DNA of 64,000 bases. It comes from Candidatus Culexmicrobium cathedralense (lineage in GTDB: Archaea > Thermoproteota > Methanomethylicia > Culexarchaeales > Culexmicrobiaceae). The DNA lies in assembly GCA_025061115.1 (NCBI GenBank), contig JANZKC010000001.1, positions 320,001 through 384,000 on the forward strand, read 5' to 3'. This document shows positions 35,876 through 42,599 of the stretch, one piece after another. Within the stretch, counting starts at the first letter, position 1; the number at the start of each line of letters is the position of its first letter. The position numbers were made by a program, and so were the translations under genes. The notes beneath the pieces were generated by a model, which made no database searches, had not been told where the DNA came from, and was given only the letters and a program-made list of their open reading frames with translations.

Positions 35876-36227
35876 TACCCCTCACCGACACCATCTAATC
35901 CATTATTTTATAATTCAATTAAATTTATTTAACATACTACTTAGCTAATTTGAGTTCCACTTCATTATCCATAATAAACAACTAAGTAAAGTGTATGCCA
36001 CTTATCTTCCTCCCTGTATTAAATTGCCATAAAAGCTCGCACCAAACTTAAACGGCTAATCAAACTAATTACATGACTAACTTCACAAGTTAATCCCTTG
36101 CATTAACAAGTTGAAATGAGCAAAGCAACATAAGCTTAGCTTTAGCAATCTCATAAGGACATAAAATTAGAAGGAAATGCTAGTGGTGAAGCTAATTGGA
36201 AGCAGAATTAAAATACAATAACAATAA

Positions 36228-37208
36228 TTATCCAAATATAATTTCTATTATCTGCTTAATTGCTAGTGGATTTAAATCCGTATTATCAATTGTTTGAACA
36301 CCTCTCAAGCTTAACTTGTATTTAACTCCTCTTGGAACCTTAACTTTTGAAACTAGAATTATCCCCCCTGGATTGTAGAGCTTACGATATAATTCAATGA
36401 CCTTTACTGCATCAACATTCTCAACTTCACCGCTGGTTAAGTGCTTAATTCCCTTAGACTTCCTAGTGCTCTTCCACCATCCAGTGATTTCCTTGCATTC
36501 AATTATGAAGTCTGGAGATTTAATTAGTGTAGCGTTAGACTTTTCATCGACGATATTTTCAATCCAGCCCCTGTAAATCATTATGTCTGGCCTTGGCGCA
36601 GCGTGGAGGGGAAGTTCATCCTCACTTTTCAGAGGTAAGCTCCACTTTATAGGCCTTGGAGCTTCTATGAAGAAGCTGAAATATGATCCATTCATCTCTA
36701 TGATGTAGTTTGGAGGAATGTGTCCGCCGCGCTGATGACCTTTCCTGTCTAGGTGCACCCAAGAGTTGGGAGGATATTTAACTTTAATATCATAATTGTA
36801 CATATTGTAGAGTATTGATAGCGCAATGAAATTTTGGAACAATATTCTACTATTAGTATCAATGCACTTTCTCACAGTTAGATTTGCAATCTGATTAAAT
36901 CGCTTAAGCGCCAACTTCCTCTTCACCGAACTCTCAATCTTAGATATTAAGACGTCTCTAATGTGGCTTAATGGATCTTGAATAAATGAGTTGAAAGCCT
37001 TGCTGTGGAAGATATACTTGATGCCGAAGAAAGTCTTGACATCATCGCACAAGCGGCTGTACTTAGATATATCCAGCTCAATTTTTTCAATTTCACCTTT
37101 ATACTTCTCATTAAGATAAGCATCAGCTACATCGTAAATTAGCTCTTCATCTGGGCTGGAAGCTTCAATTAGCTTCTTATACAGCTCTCTCCAATTCATA
37201 TCCATCAC
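36228..37208 (-). CDS. Hypothetical protein with putative PD-(D/E)XK nuclease C-terminus
   Basis: RPDIMIY...PDFIIECK pattern. Confidence 0.6.
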   Translation of the reverse strand: MMDMNWRELYKKLIEASSPDEELIYDVADAYLNEKYKGEIEKIELDISKYSRLCDDVKTFFGIKYIFHSKAFNSFIQDPLSHIRDVLISKIESSVKRKLALKRFNQIANLTVRKCIDTNSRILFQNFIALSILYNMYNYDIKVKYPPNSWVHLDRKGHQRGGHIPPNYIIEMNGSYFSFFIEAPRPIKWSLPLKSEDELPLHAAPRPDIMIYRGWIENIVDEKSNATLIKSPDFIIECKEITGWWKSTRKSKGIKHLTSGEVENVDAVKVIELYRKLYNPGGIILVSKVKVPRGVKYKLSLRGVQTIDNTDLNPLAIKQIIEIIFG

Positions 37209-37258
37209 CAGCGATAATGTGAAGTGGTAAAAGTAGTGATCCTAAAATTTATGAGAAA

Positions 37259-38512
37259 TTACACTCCTCTATTTACTTCAATTCTACCTTCCTTCATCAC
37301 CAACCTTATATTTTCGATTTTTCGCAGAACCCTAATATCTTCAAGAGGGTTTCCATCAACTACGATGACGTCAGCCAGCTTACCAACCTCAATAGTTCCA
37401 ATTTTATCAGCTAAGCCGCAAGCTTCAGCTGCAATTTTAGTTGCAGACACAATGGCATCCATAGGCTTAAATCCAACCTCATCAACTAGCAACTCCAACT
37501 CCATTGCATTAGTACCCATCCGCCATAGAGGAGGGCCGCCAAAGTCAGTTCCAGTAGCAATCTTAACACCAGCCTCATAAGCCAACTTAACGCTCTTCAA
37601 GTGGTACTCGAAAGCCTCAGCAGCCTTCCTCACACCCCACTCAATAATGCCAGCCTCCTTACCCTTAGTGACAATCTGATGCGAAATCGAAAGAGTCGGC
37701 ACCAAAATAACATTTCTCCCCTTCATCATCCTGATAGCCTCATCATCCAAGTATATTCCATGATCAATAGTTTTAACTCCAGCAGCAATAGCAATCTTAA
37801 TACCCTCAGTACCCTGAGCATGGGCAGAAACAAAAGTCCCAACCTTCCTAGCCTCCTCAACTATAGCTCTAATCTCGTCAAACGAAAATTGAGTATGCTC
37901 AGGCCTATCACGCATAGACAATACGCCGCCAGTAGCGCAAATCTTAATAAAGTCAGCACCCTCCCTCAAAGCATACCTAGCAGCCCTACGGCAATCATCA
38001 ACACCATCACAGATAGTGGGAATCTTCTGCTTAACCCACTCAATAGGGAGAAAATGGATATCACCATGACCAAAAGTTTGACTCAAAACATGCCCAGCAG
38101 CCAAAATCCTCGGCCCACGAACACTGCCCTCATTAATAGCCATCTTCAAATACAAGCCATTAGTACCGCCACAATCCTTAACAGTAGTAAAGCCAGCCCC
38201 CAACAAAGCCTCAGCATCACTAACACACCTCAAAAGCCTAACCTGCTCAGGAACAACAAAATACTCCTCCAACCTATGAGTGCGAGTACCCATAAAATGA
38301 ACATGAGCATCAATCAAACCAGGCATAACAGTCAAACCATCAACATCAATAACCTCAGCACCAGCCGGAACCTCAACATCACCAACACGCCCAACAGCCC
38401 TAATCCTACCACCCTCAACCACAACAACACTTCTATCAATTGGGGAAGAACCAGAACCATCAATCAAAAAGCCATTAACCAAAGCTAAACTCTTGCCACA
38501 ACACCTAGCCAT
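37259..38512 (-). CDS. Metal-dependent amidohydrolase, prolidase/peptidase-like subgroup
   Basis: Motifs PGLIDAHVH, GHGD, FIKICATGG, HAQ, DHG, GTDFG; GGTGA SD before ATG 38512. Confidence 0.9.
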   Translation of the reverse strand: MARCCGKSLALVNGFLIDGSGSSPIDRSVVVVEGGRIRAVGRVGDVEVPAGAEVIDVDGLTVMPGLIDAHVHFMGTRTHRLEEYFVVPEQVRLLRCVSDAEALLGAGFTTVKDCGGTNGLYLKMAINEGSVRGPRILAAGHVLSQTFGHGDIHFLPIEWVKQKIPTICDGVDDCRRAARYALREGADFIKICATGGVLSMRDRPEHTQFSFDEIRAIVEEARKVGTFVSAHAQGTEGIKIAIAAGVKTIDHGIYLDDEAIRMMKGRNVILVPTLSISHQIVTKGKEAGIIEWGVRKAAEAFEYHLKSVKLAYEAGVKIATGTDFGGPPLWRMGTNAMELELLVDEVGFKPMDAIVSATKIAAEACGLADKIGTIEVGKLADVIVVDGNPLEDIRVLRKIENIRLVMKEGRIEVNRGV

Positions 38513-38574
38513 AAAATCACCAGCAATAATAGAAAGACGCAAAAAATAACCTTAACGGTAAAAATAGAAGTAAA

Positions 38575-39744
38575 CTATGCAGGTATACTACGCAACTTCA
38601 CTGCTTTCCTCGCTATCTCCTGAACTCTACTAATATACTGCTTATGAGGATAAATCCACCTACCATCCACATACCGCTCATAGGGAATAGTTTGACGCAA
38701 ATAGTTTTTAATGTCTAAAATTATATAGCTGAAATCACTTATTACGCCTATACTAGCTAGACTTAATAATGCATTGACAAAATTAAAGAATTCTAATTTC
38801 GGCAAGTACACGTTCATATATATTACATTCTTATTAACAACTTTAGCAACAGATGATGAAAATGGCTTTCCATTAAGAGATTTTATAAACTTATTTAATA
38901 ACACATTATTATTAAATTCAACTCTAAATACGTACATATCAGCTACACTCGATGGATATGGAAAGACAACCGGTCTATAACCTCTTATTAATTTAAATCG
39001 CAAAACATGATTATAATAATGATAACGAATTGCAGGTGGAGTCATTTCTAGCTTTGACGCGATCTCTCTAAAGCTAACACATGCGTCTTTTTCCAATTCT
39101 TTCAAAATAAATATGTCAATATAATCTGGCTTAAACATTAAATTATTTTGGTCAAAATCTACTTTTGAAGTACTTGAAGAAGACCCATTAACTATTTCTT
39201 TAATCCAATCATTCCATCTAAATAACCACTTCTTTCGTTTAAAATCAAACCAATAGAATCCTCTTGAAATATCTATGATATCTTCAACCCATTCAATTAA
39301 GAATCTTTTTATTAAACCACTTTGTTGCATACTTTCTAAGAATGATTTAAATTCAATTTCCTTACCAAAAGGAATTGCAGCACTAACATAAAAACCATTA
39401 TAGTACCCAAAGCAGGGTGCTATATAATTCCAATAATCATTTGCTTTTAGAGCCTCTTTCACAAAAATTCTTTTCCTTGGAAGAATCTCGATTAAAATAT
39501 AAGAAGGCCTTAAACCAATTTTCGGATAATTAATCTTTGTAGTAATTTTAAGCATTTTGTTATTTAATAGTCTTTTAAGATGATAATGAGCTAAAGAAGG
39601 AGATAAACCAGTCATTCTTGCAACTTCGGATATATTCCTAGGATTAGCACGAGTCAATGCCGAAATTAATTGGGCAACAACATGATTTAATTGATTAAGA
39701 TATGCAGTATATTTACTCCAGAGCTCCTTTTCTTCAGCAAACAA
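38575..39744 (-). CDS. Tandem (double) Lrp/AsnC-type wHTH transcriptional regulator
   Basis: Two HTH units: ISEVARMTGLSPSLAHYHLKRL...INYPKIGL and LKELEKDACVSFREIASKLEMTPPAIRYHY. GGGGG SD before TTG; AT-rich gene. Confidence 0.85.
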   Translation of the reverse strand: MFAEEKELWSKYTAYLNQLNHVVAQLISALTRANPRNISEVARMTGLSPSLAHYHLKRLLNNKMLKITTKINYPKIGLRPSYILIEILPRKRIFVKEALKANDYWNYIAPCFGYYNGFYVSAAIPFGKEIEFKSFLESMQQSGLIKRFLIEWVEDIIDISRGFYWFDFKRKKWLFRWNDWIKEIVNGSSSSTSKVDFDQNNLMFKPDYIDIFILKELEKDACVSFREIASKLEMTPPAIRYHYYNHVLRFKLIRGYRPVVFPYPSSVADMYVFRVEFNNNVLLNKFIKSLNGKPFSSSVAKVVNKNVIYMNVYLPKLEFFNFVNALLSLASIGVISDFSYIILDIKNYLRQTIPYERYVDGRWIYPHKQYISRVQEIARKAVKLRSIPA

Positions 39745-39807
39745 ATTGAGCCCCCTTTATTGTAATATTTTGAAGCAGAATAAAAACTTTTCTAAAGAAA
39801 ATTAAAT

Positions 39808-39828
39808 CAAAAAGAAAAAGAAATAAAG
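39808..39828 (-). terminator. Oligo-T terminator after the peptide ORF
   Basis: Minus strand CTTTATTTCTTTTTCTTTTTG starting about 12 nt after the stop codon. Confidence 0.6.
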
Positions 39829-39839
39829 TGTTTATTTAC

Positions 39840-39899
39840 TTAATTTGTGTCGGGCCAAGGATCATCTACAGGGTCTCCCATCGGGTATATCTCTACCAT
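39840..39899 (-). CDS. 19-aa acidic Pro/Asp-rich peptide MVEIYPMGDPVDDPWPDTN
   Basis: GGGGGAG SD about 8 nt before ATG; in-frame upstream stop; 28/60 GC within very AT-rich flanks; own TATA box and terminator. Confidence 0.7.
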   Translation of the reverse strand: MVEIYPMGDPVDDPWPDTN

Positions 39900-39950
39900 T
39901 TCTTTTTCTCCCCCGATTTAATTTTCAAGTAAATTATGTACTAATCTCGC

Positions 39951-39999
39951 CTTATATTTTTTCTTTTTTACAAAAATGTTAAGTTACTCTTTTGTAAAA
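39951..39999 (-). promoter_or_regulatory. BRE/TATA of the peptide gene plus perfect 10-bp inverted repeat
   Basis: Minus strand AAAAAGAAAAAATATAAG. TTTTACAAAA (39966-39975)-N14-TTTTGTAAAA (39990-39999) lies directly upstream. Confidence 0.6.
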
Positions 40000-40276
40000 T
40001 GGGAAGAACATAGTAGTGAATTATTAATCTTTTTTATGATTAGTTTATATGATTAGTAGATTGTATGTAATAATTTCTTTTATTTTATTATCCTTTTTTG
40101 TAGTTAGATTTTTATTTATTTTTTATATGCTTTTGCTATTATTTTGTAAATTAAATTATAGTAGTTTTACTTTTTCTATTTGTATTTTATAGAGAAATTG
40201 TTTTTTAGCATTAAGTACAGAAATCAATTAAATATCTTTTCCTTATGGCATACTGAATATGGCATTTTAGTTTTTG

Positions 40277-41212
40277 TTATTTTATACTGTTTTTTAGTTG
40301 CCAATAATGTCTGATTCCTGTTATTCCTGGTATTTGGGTGTAGAAGTATAGGTGTTGTGTCCATGGTATTGTTGCTATTCTTATTCCGTTTAGTCTCATT
40401 GATTTTAGTGCTTTGAATAGTAGGATTGTTCCTATGCCTTTGTTTTGTTCTTTTTTGATTACTCCTATTGGTCCGAGCCAGCTTGGTTCTAGTGCTCCGT
40501 ATGCTGCGAATCCTATTGGTTGGTTGTTTTGGTTGTATGCTATCAATAGTCCGCCTGTTGGTTCGATTGTTGCTCGTTTTGCTTCGTATGCCCAGTATGG
40601 TGAGAATTTTGTTTTTATCCAGTTTTCTAGTTGATTGATCTCTCCTCTTGTTACTTCTTTAAATGTTGTTCCTTGTTTGATTAGTTTTTGTTTTAGTGTT
40701 TTTATTCTTGTTGGGATGTAGAAGCGTTTTAGGTCTACTTCGTAGTCTACTACTTCTCCGTATTTGGTGAAGCCTGCGGTAAGGTAGTTTGTTAGGTAGT
40801 AGTCATAGTGGATGTCTATTCCTGGGTGGAAGTGCCAGCTTGGAAAGTTTGCTACTCTTATTTCTGTTTTATTTTTGGCTTTTATTTCGTTTAGATATTC
40901 GTTTATTAGTTGTTGGAATAGTTTTTTGGTTCTGTGTTTTGGTGGGATTGCAATTACTTTTATCCATGCAAGGTGTTTTTGTGCTTCAACTAATTCTTTT
41001 GGTGCCCTTGTTCTTTCAACTCCTATTAGTAGGCCTATTAGCTTGTCTTTTTCTAGGGCTAGGAATGTTAGTTTTGATGTGTAATTTGGATCTTGGACTG
41101 TGCATCTTCTTAGCATGTGGTCTGTTATGAAATCTCTCTCCAAAGAAAGGTTGAGAAATTGTTTTAGTTTTAATGCGTGTTCCGGCTTTTCATCTAATCT
41201 ATATATTTTCAA
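40277..41212 (-). CDS. Tandem GNAT N-acetyltransferase
   Basis: Acetyl-CoA motif LGPIGV...QNKGIGTILL in the second domain; degenerate first GNAT domain. Confidence 0.85.
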   Translation of the reverse strand: MKIYRLDEKPEHALKLKQFLNLSLERDFITDHMLRRCTVQDPNYTSKLTFLALEKDKLIGLLIGVERTRAPKELVEAQKHLAWIKVIAIPPKHRTKKLFQQLINEYLNEIKAKNKTEIRVANFPSWHFHPGIDIHYDYYLTNYLTAGFTKYGEVVDYEVDLKRFYIPTRIKTLKQKLIKQGTTFKEVTRGEINQLENWIKTKFSPYWAYEAKRATIEPTGGLLIAYNQNNQPIGFAAYGALEPSWLGPIGVIKKEQNKGIGTILLFKALKSMRLNGIRIATIPWTQHLYFYTQIPGITGIRHYWQLKNSIK

Positions 41213-41231
41213 TTTTTAGCCTCATATTGCA

Positions 41232-42599
41232 TTATTTGATTGTGGCGTATTCATGTATTATTGCCGCTACGTGTTTCATTCCTTCTATGAAGTCTTTTAT
41301 TCTGATGTTTTCGTTGGGCGCGTGTGCTCTTGAGGCGTAGTAGCCTACTCCTGTGGATGCCATTGGTATTCCGAGGTTCTTTATGAAGAGGTACATTGGA
41401 CCTGAGCCTGCCATTGTTGGATATACTACTGGGGGTTGACCATAAACTTTCACTGCTGCATTTATGGTTGCCTTGACGATTGGAGTGTTGATTGGAGTTT
41501 TAGCTGGATATAACTTTCCTAGCAGCTTTACTTCTATGTCGCTGTAACCTTTGCTTTCCAAGTGCCTCTTCAACTTTTCAAATATGTCTTGGGGATCTTG
41601 ATCTGGAACTAATCTAAAATCTATTTTTGCTACTGCTTTTGAAGGTAGAACTGTTTTGCTGCCCGGTCCAGTGTAGCCGGAAATTATTCCGCATATATTG
41701 CATGTTGGAGAGTATAGGTGATGCTTAAGTGCTTCATATCCTTCAAGTCCATGAAGTAGCTTTTCCAGCTTAAACTCCTTCTTCATCTTCTCGGAGTCGA
41801 ATTCTATTGACTTAACGTGCTCTAGCTCTTCTTTTGATGGAGGTATTATGTTGTCGTAGAATCCTGGGATGAGGATTCTTTCATTTTCATCTTTTAGGGT
41901 TGTTAGTGCTCTTATTAGTTTCCAAGCTGGATTTGGAATTAGAGTTGCATTTGCTGAGTGCACATCTCTAGCTGGGCCGGTTGCAATTAATTCAACATAA
42001 AGTATTCCTTTAACGCCCAAGTAAATGGTTAGTCTTTCCTTAGCGTCTTTTGAACCACTTTCCCAAATTCCTCCATCAGCTTTAAACTTCTCACCATACT
42101 TCTCAATATATCTTGGCAGATTGGGGCTTCCAATTTCCTCTTCACCTTCAATTACGAATTTAATGTTTATTGGAAGTTCACCTAGGGTGTTAAGCATTGC
42201 TTCAATAGCCTTAATTCTAGCAACGATGTTACCCTTATTATCTGAAACTCCTCGAGCAAATATCTTCCCATTTTCAATTACTGGATTGAAAGGCGGATTT
42301 CTCCACTCTTCAATGGGCTCTGGAGGCTGGACGTCATAGTGATTGTAGAATAACAGTGTTTTATTTGAGCGACTCGACCTGATTTCTCCATAAATTAGTG
42401 GAGGAGCACCCTCCAGTCTAAGCAGCTCTACTTTCGCTCCAATACTCTCCAGCAGCTCCTTAACCTTACCTGCACAATCCTCTAGGCCCTCATTTCTCGC
42501 TGAAATACTTGGCTGAGAACACAATTCCACTAAGTCTCGAATCGCCTCACCCGAATGCTCATCAATATACTGGAAGACCCTGCTTAAGGAACTTTCCAC
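41232..42599 (-). CDS. M20 dipeptidase (CNDP2/DUG1-like)
   Basis: Motifs YNHYDVQP, ARGVSDNKG, EGEEEIGS, DVHS, HAPNE. Confidence 0.92.
   Translation of the reverse strand: MESSLSRVFQYIDEHSGEAIRDLVELCSQPSISARNEGLEDCAGKVKELLESIGAKVELLRLEGAPPLIYGEIRSSRSNKTLLFYNHYDVQPPEPIEEWRNPPFNPVIENGKIFARGVSDNKGNIVARIKAIEAMLNTLGELPINIKFVIEGEEEIGSPNLPRYIEKYGEKFKADGGIWESGSKDAKERLTIYLGVKGILYVELIATGPARDVHSANATLIPNPAWKLIRALTTLKDENERILIPGFYDNIIPPSKEELEHVKSIEFDSEKMKKEFKLEKLLHGLEGYEALKHHLYSPTCNICGIISGYTGPGSKTVLPSKAVAKIDFRLVPDQDPQDIFEKLKRHLESKGYSDIEVKLLGKLYPAKTPINTPIVKATINAAVKVYGQPPVVYPTMAGSGPMYLFIKNLGIPMASTGVGYYASRAHAPNENIRIKDFIEGMKHVAAIIHEYATIK

Follow-up and report, generated by a model that had tools for sequence, protein, structure and literature searches.

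This study focused on a two-gene locus in a 64,000-nucleotide (nt) stretch of DNA from Candidatus Culexmicrobium cathedralense (contig JANZKC010000001.1, positions 320,001 to 384,000; the whole stretch is referred to here as the window), where a 19-codon open reading frame (ORF) precedes a gene for a 389-amino-acid (aa) protein consisting of two fused Lrp/AsnC-type units. The genome assembly comprises 25 contigs with 41% GC, 99.99% completeness, and 7.65% contamination. Both genes lie on the minus strand. The small gene, MVEIYPMGDPVDDPWPDTN (39840..39899; ATG start, 19 aa and a stop), specifies 4 Pro, 4 Asp, 1 Trp, and no Lys, Arg, or His, and its GC content (28/60) stands against 21-22% in the flanks. 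The larger gene, termed here the regulator, occupies 38575..39744, begins with a TTG at 39744 that is preceded by GGGGG at 39755-39751, and is separated from the peptide stop by 95 nt. As judged by sequence comparison, the 19-codon product amounts to little more than the conserved C-terminal tail of an undescribed and unnamed family of archaeal small proteins, whose genes are strictly linked to those of a single subfamily of tandem Lrp/AsnC regulators.

The small gene is framed by putative expression signals, all on the minus strand. Furthest upstream is an AT-rich block (40001..40043) with a small TAATC...GATTA repeat and a TTCTTCC, which shows conserved columns in an alignment of seven orthologous upstream regions and lies just 5' of a perfect dyad, TTTTACAAAA-N14-TTTTGTAAAA (39966..39999, arms read on the minus strand). 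The dyad, a candidate operator that may be bound by protein, abuts an A-rich block resembling a transcription factor B recognition element (BRE) and TATA box, AAAAAAGAAAAAATATAAG (39951..39969), the presumed promoter of the peptide gene and nearly invariant in the seven aligned loci. A Shine-Dalgarno-like (SD) GGGGGAG follows at 39908..39914, 8 nt 5' of the ATG, with G-rich equivalents at the same position in orthologues. A T-rich tract resembling an archaeal oligo-T terminator (39794..39827) begins 12 nt after the peptide stop, again in the same place in orthologues, and is followed by a second BRE/TATA-like block, AGAAAAGTTTTTATTC (39778..39793), which is likely to be the regulator's own promoter and has a GTAAAGCTTTTAT-like counterpart in five of the seven loci.

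The dyad occurs once in the window when up to two mismatches are allowed (0/100 dinucleotide-preserving shuffles had a match), a relaxed pattern for it has a single match in the 1.98-Mb genome, and its arms and spacing are retained in the aligned orthologues with 1-2 changes. Promoter block, dyad arms, SD, and T-tract are conserved at the nucleotide level though the regulators are only about 50% identical. No second copy of the 231-nt mini-gene region was found in the genome, and an Rfam scan of 36000-42000 (E up to 1) gave two chance-level matches (E 0.67-0.69), both on the opposite strand inside the regulator ORF. A scan for sigma-70 promoters and hairpin terminators, of a type not applicable to an archaeon, returned 0 terminators. 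That the peptide gene has a conserved promoter and dyad to itself, together with a strong SD and T-rich sequence around its end, and that a second conserved promoter-like block precedes the regulator, fits a trans-acting product. A preliminary description of the locus, made before any database search, had listed the inverted repeat with its N14 spacer, the BRE/TATA block, the SD, the ORF with its residue counts and contrasting GC content, the gap of about 95 nt, and the 389-aa protein with a TATA-like element and SD of its own, and all of these proved exact; of the oligo-T terminator it described, the T-rich run is present (39827-39794) and termination there is presumptive. The peptide-regulator segment as a whole (38575-40276) is an AT-rich island, with 23-31% GC in 400-nt windows compared with 41% for the genome and 42-46% for the adjoining amidohydrolase gene.

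The 19-codon ORF is a real gene, conserved at the amino-acid level beside orthologous regulators far beyond chance. A regulator homologue was present in 18 of 41 genomes of relatives. Eight loci were inspected, and besides that of the window, four orthologous loci carried a same-strand short ORF with the same core 84-111 nt upstream of the regulator, while the short ORF was missing at one orthologue (genome G003) and at two paralogues; metagenome loci contributed two further cases, one of them with a tandemly duplicated motif. In all, short ORFs with the core DP[VI][DY]DPxP precede the orthologous regulator in five further lineages (MFAIYPMGDPVDDPFPW, MFAIYPMGDPIDDPYPDGDPIDDPYPD, MKFTFGGDPVDDPVP, MFGLIYRDDDDGREPIDDPYPN, and the pair MDPVYDPLPGC/MDPVYDPFPGY). 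Among eight copies of the core, nucleotide difference rates at codon positions 1, 2, and 3 were 0.15, 0.085, and 0.63, and codon-pair differences, with the variable x codon left out, were 100 synonymous versus 34 non-synonymous. This bias towards synonymous change indicates selection on the peptide in this frame, and a chance ORF was rejected. The preliminary description had let its case turn on short ORFs with a GDPxDDPxP-like core standing beside homologous regulators and on their conservation by codon rather than by nucleotide; both were found, and the core it singled out, GDPVDDPWP, proved to be what is conserved. The window genome (G000) has one copy of the motif ORF, and a degenerate motif pattern identified one site each in G000, G001, and G002 and none in G003, a genome that is 92% complete. 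In the genome designated G004 (loci L015/L037/L042), the tandem-regulator orthologue is split in the linker between its two units into ORFs of 167 and 211 aa, and the upstream peptide gene MFGLIYRDDDDGREPIDDPYPN is retained. Two of two short homologues of at least 20 aa were absent from a collection of 15 billion proteins, for which the window 19-mer is below the length for exact look-up. ORFs of 11-27 codons, which are missed by gene callers, can evidently be under strong selection in archaea.

The 389-aa protein is a tandem Lrp at the fold level, as the preliminary description had proposed. Pfam models matched only two winged helix-turn-helix (HTH) domains (residues 25-61 and 207-242; HTH_5, HTH_24, and HTH_AsnC matches), and the Pfam RAM model did not match the protein. 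When a profile of 32 homologues was used, each half aligned over its full length (HTH and RAM) with Lrp/AsnC chains (PH0140, E 1.5e-10; LrpA, 1.8e-7; LrpC, 1.5e-6). The AlphaFold2 (AF2) model, with a predicted local distance difference test score (pLDDT) of 91.7 and a predicted template modelling score (pTM) of 0.88, consists of an HTH followed by a beta-alpha-beta-beta-alpha-beta domain, twice, so the architecture of an AsnC-type winged HTH and then a RAM-fold domain occurs two times in one chain. These two units are predicted to form an intramolecular 'Lrp dimer'. The top Foldseek match was the fused tandem Lrp-like protein NirDL (4ch7, E 2.3e-14, template modelling scores 0.50/0.60), followed by many single Lrp/AsnC proteins. 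NirDL is the best whole-chain match because it is likewise a fused pair of Lrp-like units; it differs in sharing 11-12% sequence identity, AhbA/B reach only E 0.025 against the family profile, and there is no haem-pathway context. None of the eight Pfam matches is to a siroheme decarboxylase, the neighbouring genes are of amidohydrolase, GNAT, M20, and YbjQ types, and the HTH signature residues are conserved in the regulator family. By sequence, the protein is nearer to regulators than to decarboxylases. Each half resembles the feast/famine regulators PH0140, FL11/PH1519, LrpA, and LrpC over HTH and RAM, on which it also superposes, the differences being that two units are fused here and that the candidate effector is a gene-encoded peptide tail. 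Known effectors of Lrp/AsnC proteins are free amino acids and similar small molecules.

The regulator family forms 180 clusters at 50% identity (E <= 1e-30). Of the 301 genomes of the phylum that were sampled, 52 have a member, as do 26 of 123 genera; in the source databases these proteins are named only 'Lrp family' or 'AsnC family'. A second tandem-Lrp paralogue occurs in the window genome (G000:C2:339501-340610, locus L028), with 33% identity and no peptide ORF before it. The peptide-less clade to which this copy belongs has members in related orders that sit between pelota-like and aEF-2-like genes, as judged from translations.

The linkage between small protein and regulator was examined at 11 genome loci and 75 metagenome loci fetched with an alignment of the orthologues, a single-protein query having found no relative. 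These gave 96 distinct usable upstream regions, some of which are near-copies and not independent. A tail pattern was applied to the last 16 residues of same-strand ORFs ending no more than 160 nt from the regulator's extrapolated start, and it matched in 69 of the 96 regions; variant tails were recognised by eye in 10 more (L011, L045, L052, L058-L061, L101, L116, L124). Hence 79 of 96 distinct homologous loci, mostly from Bathyarchaeia, have a same-strand ORF with a tail close to P[LM]GDP[IV]D[DNSG]PxxP just upstream of the regulator, whereas the pattern matched control ORF tails only 1/1071 and 1/1415 times. The 17 loci without a tail ORF nearly all belong to one peptide-less clade of Methanomethylicota paralogues, including the second copy on C2 of the window genome. 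In the reverse direction, a profile of the small proteins run against 301 genomes of the phylum gave seven matches; all five credible ones have a tandem-Lrp gene directly downstream on the same strand, and the two weakest sit inside frames of 299 and 489 aa. Pfam and NCBIfam models gave no significant match to nine small proteins of all size classes (best E 0.065-0.2). The 72 relatives in public databases are without a Pfam domain, and those that are named are called 'hypothetical protein', except for one probable misnomer. In the open-access literature searched, there was no earlier description of an archaeal peptide paired with an Lrp regulator.

Most members of the family are 39-76 aa long, with an MN[WL]K start, a helix of about 20 hydrophobic residues, a variable linker, and the C-terminal P[LM]GDP[IV]D[DNSG]PxxP (for example, ...YEPMGDPIDGPWAPN, compared with IYPMGDPVDDPWPDTN for the window tail). 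The motif is always at the extreme C-terminus, its last Pro lying 0-4 residues before the stop, and Pro and Gly interchange in variant tails such as GDPGGGGWP and GDAVGGGGGPH. All 56 helix-bearing members (39-76 aa) have a 19-aa segment with a mean Kyte-Doolittle value of at least 1.89 and the conserved tail at the C-terminus, whereas the window peptide is without a hydrophobic segment (best 9-aa mean 0.24). It had been noted at the outset that this peptide has no signal sequence, which holds; as most members keep a predicted hydrophobic export or anchor segment, the lineage of the window appears to have lost its N-terminal helix. When the regulators are arranged in a tree, short leaderless peptides are found only in the clade of the window, whose sister is the peptide-less clade, and the helix-bearing form fills a clade of 57 rows. 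The flank N-terminal to the helix is more positive than the C-terminal flank in 52 of the 56 helix-bearing members, so that a topology with the N-terminus inside and the C-terminus, including the tail, outside the cell is predicted. A role as membrane tether for the regulator was rejected on these grounds, and a toxin-like small membrane peptide was rejected since the window form is without a helix.

Several side observations concern the tail. It has been tandemly duplicated independently in a leaderless member (L050:541-624, GDPIDDPYPD twice) and a helix-bearing one (L115:162-338, AIDNPVPL / DIDNPVPL). At distant tandem-Lrp paralogues (L025, L026, L033-L035, L038), some of them in genomes of the window's own family or order, the regulator is preceded by a protein of 83-145 aa that combines a Sec-like signal with a beta-rich body and ends in a FDPPG..PG.P tail, which may be the ancestral form of the peptide-regulator pair. 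At two loci counted as having no peptide (L023 and L024, from genomes G026 and G018), a same-strand ORF stops some 30 nt short of the regulator, its product having a hydrophobic stretch and then the ending ...GPGPIPMPPF or ...VPGPIPMPPL; these may be divergent members that lack Asp.

The 170 nt upstream of the small ORF at 54 helix-type loci (e.g. L069:1125-1212) also have a conserved promoter layout. A palindrome, TTCTAGAA, is found in 28 of the 54 just upstream of CATATAAGC, and a dyad lies between the TATA box and the AGGAGGTGA SD, its sequence differing by subclade (TTTTTGTCGAA..TTCGACAAAAA; CATCC..GGATG). RNAalifold found no consensus structure in 26 Bathyarchaeial 5' regions, and a hand-drawn stem from TATA to SD was 58% paired, compared with 62% when slid by -1.

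Co-variation connects the tail with a particular site in the regulator. The tail residue after DP[IV]D, termed p5, was distributed as S 15, D 14, N 12, and G 11 among the 52 pairs with a parsable tail, and it shares most mutual information (1.57 bits) with regulator column 68, which is in the strand after the first HTH, within a conserved segment, FLR-x-X-x-N[IV]YHT. Asp at p5 is paired with His or Arg at residue 68 in 10 of 14 cases, Asn with Asn, Ser, or Gly, Ser with Leu and less often Asn or His, and Gly with Tyr or Phe and less often His or Asn. Three switches between sister groups carry most of the weight: L074 (DD, H) versus L068/L079 (DN, N), L044 (DD, H) versus L043/L063/L075/L090 (DN, N), and L065/L096/L099 (DD, H) versus L076/L078/L095/L097 (DN, S). 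Tree-aware contrasts gave five independent pairs, with 4.9 in the same direction and 0 opposite. As column 68 had been chosen after scanning all columns, the same test was repeated on every column, and of the 218 that vary between basic and non-basic residues only column 68 reached a value of 3 or more, the runner-up having 1.8. It was again first when Asn was tested against small polar residues (4/4), largely through the same switches. Residues K219, K301, and R350 are among those conserved in peptide-linked and not in peptide-less regulators. This difference was not accepted as evidence, since most of the peptide-less set comes from a single clade; K301, moreover, is not retained in the orthologues with short peptides.

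Co-folding of the 19-mer with the regulator, supplied with its alignment, had likewise been suggested in the preliminary description, and it gave a weak pass, with a score of 0.56 (runs of 0.01, 0.56, and 0.56) against 0.02 for the best control. At least 9% of contacts are shared between runs, and the pLDDT of the partner is 29-65. In calibration, 58 of 80 solved complexes attained the mark, as did 2 of 110 mismatched pairs, a 19-residue partner falling outside that calibration; scores of 0.60 or below include only 7 of the 80 solved complexes and both of the passing mismatches.

In its logic, the locus is most reminiscent of the RRNPP(A) systems of Bacillota and their phages (Rap-Phr, PlcR-PapR, NprR-NprX, AimR-AimP). 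In these, according to published accounts, a small propeptide gene is adjacent to the gene for a cytoplasmic receptor-regulator (PMC10075063), the propeptide has an N-terminal secretion segment and its active part at the C-terminal end (PMC10518010), and in some the active part is tandemly duplicated (PMC11343458). The likeness lies in the two adjacent genes, an adjacency seen here at 79 of 96 distinct loci and at 5/5 credible reverse matches, in the tandem duplication of the motif, and perhaps in the C-terminal position of the conserved part. The differences are the archaeal host, the position of the peptide gene upstream of the receptor gene, a tail that is highly conserved across phyla, and the receptor, for which Pfam gives HTH families only and the fold is a tandem of HTH and RAM rather than tetratricopeptide repeats (TPR). 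Since the receptor is not of TPR type, the pair is not a member of the RRNPP(A) or leaderless-communication-peptide families. A parallel for the window's 19-aa form and the 11-aa leaderless form of a relative is the streptococcal SIP/leaderless communication peptide (LCP)-RopB system, in which, as reported, an ultrasmall ORF is itself the active peptide, without sequences for secretion or processing, and adjoins the gene for a cytoplasmic receptor that binds the peptide promoter (PMC10518010). It differs in that RopB is an RRNPPA member, and here the leaderless state would be derived from a family normally possessing an N-terminal helix.

The explanation judged best, and held to be somewhat probable, sees in the tail a genetically encoded effector that the adjacent tandem-Lrp regulator reads directly, a system with RRNPP-like logic built from unrelated parts. 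The C-terminal tail would be recognised by the regulator, and the strand after the first HTH (residues 66-71, with position 68 conferring specificity) probably participates in this. The regulator probably binds the conserved dyad abutting the BRE/TATA of the peptide promoter, which would close a feedback loop, the sign of the regulation being as presumptive as the occupancy of the operator. In most lineages, the N-terminal hydrophobic helix, with its predicted orientation, would display the tail outside the cell or release it there; with the tail outside and the regulator in the cytoplasm, the tail would have to re-enter, which is the same logic as in RRNPP systems. In the window lineage, where the helix seems to have been lost or replaced, the peptide may act intracellularly, or may exit by another route like the leaderless communication peptides. 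Two C2 loci of the window genome specify binding proteins of the SBP_bac_5 (Opp/Dpp) type, which shows import capacity only.

Several observations weigh against a tail that is read by the regulator. The predicted topology (52/56) puts the tail across the membrane from its supposed receptor, and the genes near the fetched loci include no conserved transporter or protease. The tail is nearly identical across distant lineages, unlike the fast-diverging private signals of RRNPP systems, and such conservation across phyla appears unusual for a private quorum signal. Its Asp/Pro/Gly make-up resembles the stalling motifs that depend on eIF5A in yeast (PMC5499558). The co-variation was obtained with a column picked by an all-column scan, and the sign-test p of 0.0625 is the minimum possible with five contrasts; for the Gly class column 68 ranks only 6th of 158 (three contrasts) and for the Ser class 20th of 241 (two contrasts). 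The window's own clade breaks the rule, with Asp at p5 accompanied by Thr, Val, or Arg, so the rule extends to the window through homology alone. The co-folding pass was weak, with a score of 0.01 in one of the three runs and no interface in the output. The peptide/receptor circuit proposed in the preliminary description therefore fares unevenly: the genetic locking, the conserved promoter and dyad, the co-variation of p5 with residue 68, and the weak co-fold pass speak for it, while the failure of the residue-68 rule in the window's clade and a motif unusually conserved for a private signal speak against the form in which it was cast.

The alternative that survives best, unlikely as it is thought to be, is that the regulator merely controls transcription of the small-protein gene, and that the tail acts elsewhere, on a membrane or surface partner or an ion, without binding to the regulator. 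The peptide promoter does have a conserved dyad, and such control would account for the linkage by itself. It is also in keeping with the many members that look exported or membrane-anchored with their tail predicted to be outside, and with the lack of a conserved importer or protease nearby. Yet the co-variation between p5 and residue 68 would be unexpected if tail and regulator never meet, the leaderless forms of 11-27 aa remain under purifying selection despite the lost export segment, and the co-folding pass, weak as it was, also favours contact between the two.

It is rather improbable that the ORF works in cis, with the Asp/Pro/Gly tail near the stop stalling the ribosome in a manner dependent on aIF5A or on termination and so tuning the downstream regulator, like arrest peptides or the eukaryotic sensors formed by upstream conserved coding regions (uCC) and upstream ORFs (uORF). 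The strictly C-terminal motif, with its last Pro so close to the stop, and the interchange of Pro and Gly in the variants are what might be expected of a stalling sequence, and forms down to 11 aa exist. In yeast, D-x-x motifs with a downstream Pro or Gly stall without eIF5A, DDP being named among them (PMC5499558). The ribosome as a universal target would moreover explain conservation across phyla. The known arrest peptides SecM, MifM, and VemP similarly combine an N-terminal signal or transmembrane segment with a conserved, Pro-rich C-terminal motif upstream of another gene. They and the eIF5A-dependent uORF sensors differ from the present family in the short distance from helix to tail, in the gaps of 30-95 nt, in the lack of a detectable RNA switch, and in having here a transcription factor downstream. 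Across the family, 6-52 residues follow the helix, as few as 6 in the 39-46-aa forms, which is too short for SecM/MifM-type force sensing. The stop-to-start gap, 95 nt in the window, is 30-76 nt in 55 of 56 Bathyarchaeial loci, measured to the regulator ATG and without overlaps (the remaining locus has a mis-picked start), and the RNA from peptide to regulator start in the window folds no better than shuffled sequences (z = +0.51). Spacing, non-overlapping gaps, and unremarkable RNA stability together argue against a SecM/MifM-type leader or one that masks a ribosome-binding site. Promoter-like blocks are conserved before the regulator, a pure leader would have no need of a conserved N-terminal helix, and co-variation with a regulator residue would be left unexplained.

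A precursor of the ribosomally synthesised and post-translationally modified peptide (RiPP) type, with the winged-HTH protein as its recognition element or enzyme, is very unlikely. Such a role would suit a short peptide with a conserved core, a motif duplicated in two lineages, and the resemblance of the whole chain to the siroheme decarboxylase NirDL; against this, the neighbouring genes include no conserved modifying enzyme, protease, or exporter, Lrp regulators are a better sequence match to the halves than AhbA/B (1.5e-10 versus 0.025), the Pfam matches include no decarboxylase family, and the HTH signature residues are conserved. Least tenable of all is a classical attenuation leader that senses Asp/Pro supply and controls read-through of the T-tract into the regulator gene, since, for all that 4 Asp and 4 Pro among 19 codons, a T-rich tract 12 nt after the stop, and the feast/famine role of Lrp-type proteins might suggest it, the order of residues is conserved beyond their composition, no alternative structures were found in the window RNA between peptide and regulator, the regulator has a promoter-like block of its own, and most homologues are membrane-type proteins of 39-76 aa.

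The genes surrounding the pair differ between lineages. In the window, the minus-strand order is M20 peptidase, GNAT, peptide gene, regulator, amidohydrolase, and a 326-aa gene without a family; GNAT, M20, and a nuclease-like gene are typical of the window's clade, and PadR or NitrOD5-like genes of Bathyarchaeia. The GNAT (311 aa) and M20 peptidase (455 aa) genes (40277-42599, minus strand) keep their position in six fetched loci each, from at least three genomes (G000, G003, and G004, with repeat fetches), and may be syntenic or part of the regulon. The 326-aa gene (36228-37208, minus strand), which has no Pfam family, follows the regulator in orthologous loci, with the amidohydrolase between them in this genus. 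Its conservation exceeds that of the regulator (mean column identity 70%), and it has a PRPD...ECK pattern like that of PD-(D/E)xK nucleases; its AF2 model (pLDDT 79.6) gave only weak Foldseek matches to restriction endonucleases, BstEII (6.9e-4) and then BsoBI. At Bathyarchaeial loci (e.g. L113:2338-2886 and L094:40-504, both minus strand) the peptide gene has as its upstream neighbour a small gene transcribed in the opposite direction, away from it. This gene belongs to the PadR family in 28 loci (E 4.7e-11), and in 16 loci it specifies a protein of about 105 aa that matches NitrOD5 weakly (3e-4).

Cell-to-cell signalling in archaea is, to our knowledge, barely charted, and the only peptide pheromone circuits known to us in which the receptor is cytoplasmic come from Bacillota and their phages, where the receptors have a TPR scaffold. 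It is a tentative and rather doubtful proposal that the pair represents the first genetically encoded archaeal peptide-signalling system, in which a small peptide, exported or, in the window's lineage, leaderless, would present a GDP[IV]D-x-P..P tail to the effector side of the tandem Lrp/AsnC protein, with p5 and residue 68 forming a 'pherotype' code. The module is amenable to testing, as it has two genes, a conserved and easily synthesised peptide, a well-folding 389-aa receptor candidate, a defined candidate operator, and a predicted specificity pair in p5 and residue 68. Its hosts are uncultured, globally abundant sediment archaea. Should the tail turn out to stall ribosomes instead, it would represent a conserved archaeal nascent-peptide sensor, which would likewise be new. 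If it is read by the regulator, a signalling system would be widespread in Bathyarchaeia and in Methanomethylicota/Culexarchaeia, RAM domains could serve as peptide receptors, either from cell to cell or from envelope to cytoplasm, and the effector range of the Lrp/AsnC family would extend from amino acids to gene-encoded peptides.

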